DNA of 64,000 nucleotides from the NCBI RefSeq assembly GCF_003334255.1, contig NZ_QOWU01000002.1; one strand, 5' to 3'. The notes beneath the pieces were generated by a model. It saw nothing but the letters and a program-made list of their open reading frames with translations. It was not told where the DNA came from and did no database searches. This document shows positions 44,675-44,728 of the stretch, piece by piece (positions within the stretch are counted from its first letter, which is position 1; every line of letters begins with the position of its first letter). The position numbers were made by a program, and so were the translations under genes. This DNA comes from Escherichia coli. Lineage in GTDB: Bacteria > Pseudomonadota > Gammaproteobacteria > Enterobacterales > Enterobacteriaceae.

Positions 44675-44728
44675 ATATACTATAGGGGGGTATGCATTGA
44701 CATATAGAATACCCCCCTATAGTATATT
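44675..44728 (+). promoter_or_regulatory. frmRAB promoter/operator: long inverted repeat with G6/C6 tracts (candidate FrmR operator)
   Basis: ATATACTATAGGGGGGTATGCATTGACATATAGAATACCCCCCTATAGTATAT; arms ATACTATAGGGGGG/CCCCCCTATAGTAT are perfectly complementary; ends about 25 bp before the frmR ATG. Confidence 0.7.

Follow-up and report, generated by a model that had tools for sequence, protein, structure and literature searches.

The operator of the formaldehyde-responsive repressor FrmR, a member of the CsoR/RcnR family, is already known in Escherichia coli: the inverted repeat upstream of frmR, its identification as a tandem FrmR site and the mechanism by which formaldehyde is sensed were published in 2015-2016. 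Type I operators of CsoR/RcnR repressors are defined by an uninterrupted G/C tract of 3-8 bp (PMC5146963). Denby et al. (2016; Sci Rep 6:38879, PMC5146963) described the repeat in the E. coli promoter Pfrm as tandem type I FrmR sites (Fig. 6a) and modelled two tetramers on the two boxes, and they also raised a single bridging tetramer. The E. coli FrmR protein binds Pfrm with a Kd of ~220 nM, compared with ~3600 nM for a control promoter, and formaldehyde dissociates the complex; during in vitro transcription from a Pfrm fragment, FrmR represses and formaldehyde relieves the repression. Sensing is accomplished by a methylene bridge between Pro2 and Cys35 (PMC5146963). The promoters of E. coli and Salmonella were aligned by Osman et al. 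(2016; JBC 291:19502, PMC5016687, Fig. 2D). Salmonella FrmR binds its operator, formaldehyde weakens this binding, and a 33-bp probe, TTCTGATAGTATACCCCCCTATAGTATATGGAG, is bound with a K_DNA of ~1e-7 M; this single-box probe takes up two tetramers per DNA, and binding is lost when one of its T/A-rich repeats is mutated (PMC4528141, PMC5016687).

The FrmR operator is already in use in formaldehyde and methylglyoxal biosensors. A biosensor paper from 2024 (PMC11127321) reported that the constitutive promoter J23100 comes under FrmR-dependent repression once two ATACN9GTAT boxes are inserted into it, with repression by overexpressed FrmR and 40-fold induction. A truncated PfrmR, which keeps both boxes but lacks the DNA upstream of them, lost repression, and the same boxes placed in the P93 promoter (P93M) gave no response to methylglyoxal (PMC11127321); the boxes alone may therefore not always suffice. 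The searchable literature yielded neither a mapped transcription start nor a footprint for the E. coli site, possibly owing to a gap of access, and the same holds for point mutagenesis of the E. coli boxes, for which the binding data come from whole promoter fragments. Pfrm has also been the subject of papers on sort-seq or on mutagenesis for biosensors.

Geometry of the inverted repeat and the frmR promoter

The window, by which we mean the whole stretch of 64 kb of E. coli DNA analysed here, contains a perfect inverted repeat of 53 bp with 19-nt arms and a 15-nt spacer upstream of frmR (Table 1). A preliminary description of this DNA had reported 14-bp arms around a 24-bp centre, ending at 44728 and about 25 bp before the start of frmR. 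The place and the perfect symmetry of the repeat were borne out, as was the distance to the gene, with 24 nt lying between the last position of the repeat (44727) and the ATG of frmR (44752). The dimensions have to be corrected: the 14-mers at 44677-44690 (ATACTATAGGGGGG) and 44712-44725 (CCCCCCTATAGTAT) are separated by 21 nt and cover no more than an inner portion of each arm, and the repeat does not extend to 44728.

The repeat is far beyond what is expected by chance. Among perfect inverted repeats of the window with loops of up to 40 nt, the next-longest have arms of 13 nt, the longest arm in each of 100 first-order Markov simulations of 64 kb measured 10-15 nt, and arms of at least 19 nt have an analytic expectation of ~1e-5 per window. 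For the region as single-stranded DNA, a folding energy of -18 kcal/mol was calculated, which corresponds to z = -5.4 against shuffles. The repeats with 13-nt arms are found at 58081-58115 (TGTGTGAAATTGT, 9-nt loop) and at 32747-32776 (TAATGCCCGTCAA, 4-nt loop).

Each arm contains one 17-bp box of the form ATAC-N9-GTAT, which encloses a G6 or a C6 tract. The two boxes are the only matches to ATACN9GTAT in the 64 kb, where 0.41 are expected by chance, and the distal box is the exact reverse complement of the proximal one; no further FrmR site was found in the window when up to three mismatches to the box were allowed. The features of a type I operator are thus present, with an uninterrupted tract of six in each box, ATAC and GTAT flanks around each tract and an overlap with a predicted promoter in front of a gene encoding a PF02583 protein. 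The starts of the mirrored boxes lie 32 bp apart and bracket a consensus -35 hexamer; the distal box stops 3 nt 5' of this hexamer, and the proximal box takes in the -10 hexamer completely and, 5' of it, the adjoining part of the promoter spacer.

A consensus scan of positions 44300-45100 returned a single sigma-70-like promoter, which matches the consensus at 10/12 hexamer positions with a spacing of 17 nt; this match on its own is weak evidence because shuffles of the same 800 nt contain 0.8 such sites on average. The assignment of the two hexamers to these exact positions is putative. It had been proposed that the spacer of the repeat carries both the -35 and the -10 elements, of which the first part proved right, as TTGACA is located in the spacer, and the second did not, as the best -10 candidate, TAGTAT, belongs to the right arm. 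Denby et al. set the centre of the repeat, here at 44701, at position -29 relative to a predicted start (PMC5146963), and +1 is therefore predicted to lie near 44730.

Table 1. Positions of the repeat, the predicted promoter elements and the adjacent genes in the window
Feature	Position	Strand	Remarks
yaiO	43790-44563	+	TIGR04390
Conserved upstream flank of the promoter module, CGGATAAATTTTATTCTCCAGTGTT	44650-44674	+	Homology resumes here in E. coli lineages with other neighbours
ORF of 49 aa	44670-44819	+	Overlaps operator and frmR
ORF of 63 aa	44673-44864	-	Overlaps operator and frmR
Whole inverted repeat, probable core of the frmRAB operator-promoter	44675-44727	.	Sequence and chance controls; order ATATACTATAGGGGGGTAT-GCATTGACATATAGA-ATACCCCCCTATAGTATAT
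Left arm, ATATACTATAGGGGGGTAT	44675-44693		19 nt
Distal FrmR box, ATAC-TATAGGGGG-GTAT = ATACTATAGGGGGGTAT	44677-44693	.	G6 at 44685-44690
Spacer of the repeat, GCATTGACATATAGA	44694-44708		15 nt
-35 hexamer, TTGACA (6/6)	44697-44702	+	Promoter scan; in the spacer between the boxes
Right arm, ATACCCCCCTATAGTATAT	44709-44727		19 nt
Proximal FrmR box, ATAC-CCCCCTATA-GTAT = ATACCCCCCTATAGTAT	44709-44725	.	C6 at 44712-44717
Best -10 candidate, TAGTAT	44720-44725	+	Consensus match only; inside right arm and proximal box
Shine-Dalgarno-like GAGGTG	44742-44747	+	4 nt 5' of the frmR ATG; read from the sequence
frmR, first gene of the operon, autoregulated	44752-45027	+	91 aa; CsoR/RcnR-family formaldehyde-responsive repressor
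frmA, S-(hydroxymethyl)glutathione dehydrogenase	45062-46171	+	TIGR02818, 745 bits (cut-off 544)
frmB/fghA, S-formylglutathione hydrolase	46265-47098	+	TIGR02821, 394 bits (cut-off 282)

The gene that starts 24 nt 3' of the repeat is frmR. Translation of positions 44752-45024 yields the 91-aa FrmR protein, which matches Pfam PF02583, scores 189 bits against the NCBIfam equivalog NF008464 (cut-off 133) and aligns over residues 1-91 with PDB 5LBM, whereas its score of 68 bits against the RcnR equivalog remains below the cut-off of 138. Pro2, Cys35 and His60 are present in the protein and are invariant in an alignment of diverse FrmR proteins. Positions 44400-44900 are 100% identical to E. coli strain 4/2-1, and thousands of E. 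coli genomes have the region annotated as yaiO and frmR.

We assign a probability of about 0.93 to the reading that the 53-bp palindrome is the E. coli frmRAB operator-promoter, in which the -35 hexamer is enclosed by two mirrored FrmR boxes, the proximal of which lies over the -10 hexamer. That the repeat is the FrmR operator overlapping the frmRAB promoter had also been the proposal of the preliminary description, and it is upheld by the FrmR equivalog with frmA and frmB downstream, by the type I boxes and by the fact that the repeat has already been published as such. Without formaldehyde, disc-shaped FrmR tetramers on the boxes would exclude sigma-70 RNA polymerase from the promoter, occlusion being the presumed mode of repression. 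Formaldehyde links FrmR subunits through methylene bridges between Pro2 and Cys35 and thereby remodels the DNA-binding face, and the remodelled FrmR falls off, so that frmR, frmA and frmB are transcribed. As frmR is the first gene of the operon, the circuit resets itself.

Variation of the operator in E. coli and across species

The promoter of 92 bp (44660-44751) is present as a single copy in 5372 of 5426 E. coli genomes. The exact majority allele of the 53-nt repeat was found in at least 3555 records and the allele of the window in at least 1033; both counts are lower bounds because a megablast search with 53 nt misses genomes with several spacer changes, which lack an exact 28-mer. The two alleles differ solely at spacer position 44708, which is a C in most E. 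coli genomes, giving arms of 21 nt and a loop of 11 nt, compared with an A and arms of 19 nt in the window. Strain gw25 is identical to the window over positions 44655-44760 and carries the locus at ~379 kb, as in K-12, a position which suggests that the strain is K-12-like.

Almost all variation across thousands of E. coli genomes falls in the spacer. Nine strains, sampled first so as to span the range of identities, had invariant arms and variable spacers, -35 hexamers and downstream leaders; the -35 variants TTAACA and TTGGCA were rare and were seen in strains 2012C-4227 and 2014C-3655. The Shine-Dalgarno-like sequence was the same in every sampled strain. A second sample, drawn from the most divergent 53-nt matches, contained changes in the arms: strains G5 and ETEC1716 have a C7 tract in the proximal box, which turns it into ATAC-N10-GTAT, in strain 06-00048 a GG of the distal box is changed to CA, and in E. 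albertii a C of the proximal tract is replaced by T. Either these rare arm and -35 variants amount to natural tests of how the operator functions, or they are assembly errors in homopolymers.

The DNA 5' of the frmR promoter is a rearrangement junction in E. coli. The upstream neighbour is fbpC in O157:H7 and tauA in ST131, with yaiO-yaiP missing and the repeat kept intact, and these lineages become homologous to the window again 15-25 nt ahead of the repeat. The retained flank contains the motif TTTATTCT, and Enterobacter- and Morganella-type loci have a similar one ahead of their distal box. Two further features are found between yaiO and the frmR promoter. A GC-rich hairpin, read from the sequence, lies at 44571-44592, just past the yaiO stop (44563), and a C11 homopolymer occupies 44610-44620. 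Among E. coli strains, the homopolymer ranges from C7 to C11 and includes interrupted forms such as GCCCCTC and CCCCACTCCC; it interrupts the megablast alignment in some genomes and could be a hot spot of either slippage or sequencing errors.

The cross-species footprint of the operator, with the 17-bp ATAC-N9-GTAT box as its conserved unit, is what the present analysis adds to the published work. Starting from an alignment of diverse FrmR proteins, 80 species-level loci were collected and the 110 nt 5' of each frmR homolog were read. ATAC-N9-GTAT occurs 82 times in these 8.8 kb (9.3/kb), compared with 5 times in the other 395 kb (0.013/kb), which is a ~700-fold enrichment 5' of frmR. An exact box is present in 65 of the 80 loci, and a box with at most one mismatch in 76, in which it is the proximal box that is conserved 5' of frmR. 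The other four loci comprise two with N8 variants, one with a box 489 nt upstream and one with the related sequence ATACTCCCCCCCAC. A frmA homolog directly follows frmR in 70 of the 80 loci, and three of the other ten are too short to tell.

Two boxes that flank TTGAC, with centres 32-35 bp apart, were found in loci of Escherichia, Enterobacter, Edwardsiella, Pantoea, Providencia, Serratia, Erwinia, Morganella, Aeromonas and Deefgea. A single box, positioned beside or just 3' of TTGAC where this is recognisable, is present in Tatumella, Mesocricetibacter, alpha- and beta-proteobacteria and Lysobacteraceae. TTGAC is thus kept between or beside the boxes in orthologous loci, and the distal box, and with it the double and usually mirrored arrangement, is confined to loci of Enterobacterales, Aeromonas and Deefgea and does not extend to all Enterobacterales, as the one box of Tatumella illustrates. 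The N9 cores are mirrored at 9/9 positions in four of the five Escherichia loci and at 8/9 in E. albertii. They are likewise mirrored at 9/9 positions in the Enterobacter/Edwardsiella/Morganella cassette, and at 5-8/9 in the other two-box loci apart from Erwinia and Deefgea. The boxes of Erwinia endophytica are in direct orientation (7/9 direct, 2/9 mirrored), those of Deefgea have unmirrored cores, and Klebsiella-type loci have a spacing of 40 bp and an N10 box. Since many species have the promoter-proximal box alone, the box rather than the large palindrome would be the functional unit. Judged from these alignments, we infer that the conserved functional unit is the 17-bp box, and that two mirrored boxes give rise to the long perfect palindrome as a feature of particular lineages.

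Several observations concern individual lineages. The proximal box of Erwinia endophytica and of two Deefgea loci contains a G tract, not a C tract, and its 3' end, TATAGTAT, is kept; the 3' half of the proximal box may be constrained by the -10 hexamer as well as by FrmR. Near-identical frmR-frmA-frmB promoters and genes were found in unrelated genera, namely in Enterobacter sp., on plasmid 1 of Edwardsiella anguillarum and in Morganella psychrotolerans, all with perfectly mirrored arms of 18-21 nt that contain GTGGAG, not GGGGGG, and this set of genes looks like a mobile formaldehyde-resistance cassette. Klebsiella grimontii and a Citrobacter freundii MAG encode a widespread type of FrmR that is 91% identical to the protein of the window, with no frmA behind frmR. 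They have a further box, ATACTGCCGTATAGTAT, at about position 3354, ~108 nt 5' of a 383-aa ORF, the translation of which looks like a putative iron-type alcohol dehydrogenase; this suggests that FrmR controls a different gene in this lineage.

Alternative explanations for the palindrome

The only live alternative is a higher-order complex, in which the whole palindrome would be the functional unit, and which we consider rather unlikely. FrmR would then form one complex that needs both mirrored boxes in a fixed helical phase as well as the upstream flank and that encloses the -35 region, either as one tetramer that uses both of its faces to bridge the boxes or as several tetramers that cooperate in wrapping the DNA. 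Selection, or else concerted evolution of the arms, would account for the perfect symmetry. The spacing of the two-box loci fits this arrangement, as the box centres are 32-35 bp, or about three helical turns, apart in 17 such loci from several genera, and the N9 cores are mirrored in both Escherichia and the Enterobacter/Edwardsiella/Morganella group despite their differing tracts (GGGGGG and GTGGAG). Bridging by one tetramer is the possibility raised by Denby et al. (PMC5146963), and the loss of repression by the truncated promoter that retained its boxes hints at contacts beyond the boxes (PMC11127321). However, a single box is all that is present in the loci of Tatumella and of alpha- and beta-proteobacteria, and Salmonella FrmR binds tightly to a probe with a single box (PMC4528141, PMC5016687). 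Neither a mirrored arrangement nor a fixed spacing is universal among loci with two boxes, given the direct boxes of Erwinia, the unmirrored cores of Deefgea and the wider spacing in combination with the N10 box of Klebsiella-type loci. Furthermore, mirror identity can arise when both boxes track the same protein optimum. The two FrmR boxes probably act independently of each other. If the higher-order complex did form, enterobacterial promoters with a double box would gain a switch behavior that is absent from single-box promoters, and selection or template-switch correction would maintain the identity of the arms. For the design of biosensors, it could matter how many tetramers the double site takes up and what the distal box and the upstream flank contribute.

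It is very improbable that the repeat acts through its structure, as a DNA cruciform or as an RNA hairpin at which read-through transcripts from yaiO are terminated or processed, and thereby controls the expression of frmR. The perfect 19-bp stem does fold stably as DNA, as described above, but it is not followed by a T-run, running into TGCATGCAGA instead, and a terminator scan of 44300-45100 returned no terminator-like site, which rules out an intrinsic terminator. With its position 5' of the predicted start and the -35 and -10 hexamers within it, the stem would not be part of the frmR mRNA. A search of Rfam with 44300-45200 and permissive filters gave only sub-threshold matches to eukaryotic miRNA hairpins (22-26 bits, with gathering thresholds of 79-139), which is what any long hairpin would give. 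Across species, conservation resides in the primary sequence ATAC...GTAT, which is also found in single-box species that are unable to form a long hairpin, and the separate GC-rich hairpin behind yaiO would be the more likely end of the yaiO transcript. The structural reading therefore fails on the promoter hexamers, the missing T-run, the lack of a matching RNA family and the conservation of the primary sequence. A dispersed repeat or the end of a mobile element (REP, MITE or IS inverted repeat) that came to lie beside frmR by chance might be suspected at a rearrangement hot spot with differing neighbours in O157:H7 and ST131, but this can be dismissed, as more than 5000 E. coli genomes have the repeat at a single place each (median 1, maximum 2), and as it has no second copy within three mismatches in the window and is always attached to frmR, with the breakpoints lying 5' of 44650-44660 and hence outside the repeat.

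Comparison with described operators

The operator-promoter with two FrmR boxes described here is the same feature at the same locus as the Pfrm operator of E. coli K-12, which Denby et al. described as a large inverted repeat with its centre at position -29. In substance, it does not differ from K-12 Pfrm as presented by Denby et al. and Osman et al.; the box starts are 32 bp apart in the window, and the published distance between the centres is 31 bp.

The frmRA operator of Salmonella Typhimurium resembles that of the window in having a C6 tract inside a T/A-rich inverted repeat, and the 19-nt right arm of the window is contained exactly in the 33-bp frmRAPro probe of Salmonella. According to Osman et al., the Salmonella operator consists of a single C6 tract and one inverted repeat, whereas E. 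coli adds a mirrored distal box 5' of the -35 hexamer. The operons differ as well, with frmRA lacking frmB in Salmonella and frmRAB in E. coli.

A more distant relative is the operator of E. coli RcnR in the rcnR-rcnA intergenic region, which, as far as the work of Iwig and Chivers is cited in PMC5146963, consists of tandem TACT-G6-N-AGTA sites. To the extent covered by that account, the sites of RcnR and FrmR are alike in being type I sites arranged in tandem, with TACT-like and AGTA-like arms on either side of a G6 tract, in being recognized by PF02583 repressors and in the proposed binding of one tetramer per site (PMC5146963). RcnR responds to Ni/Co, not to formaldehyde; by the same account, the centres of the RcnR sites are 19 bp apart, compared with ~32 bp in the window.
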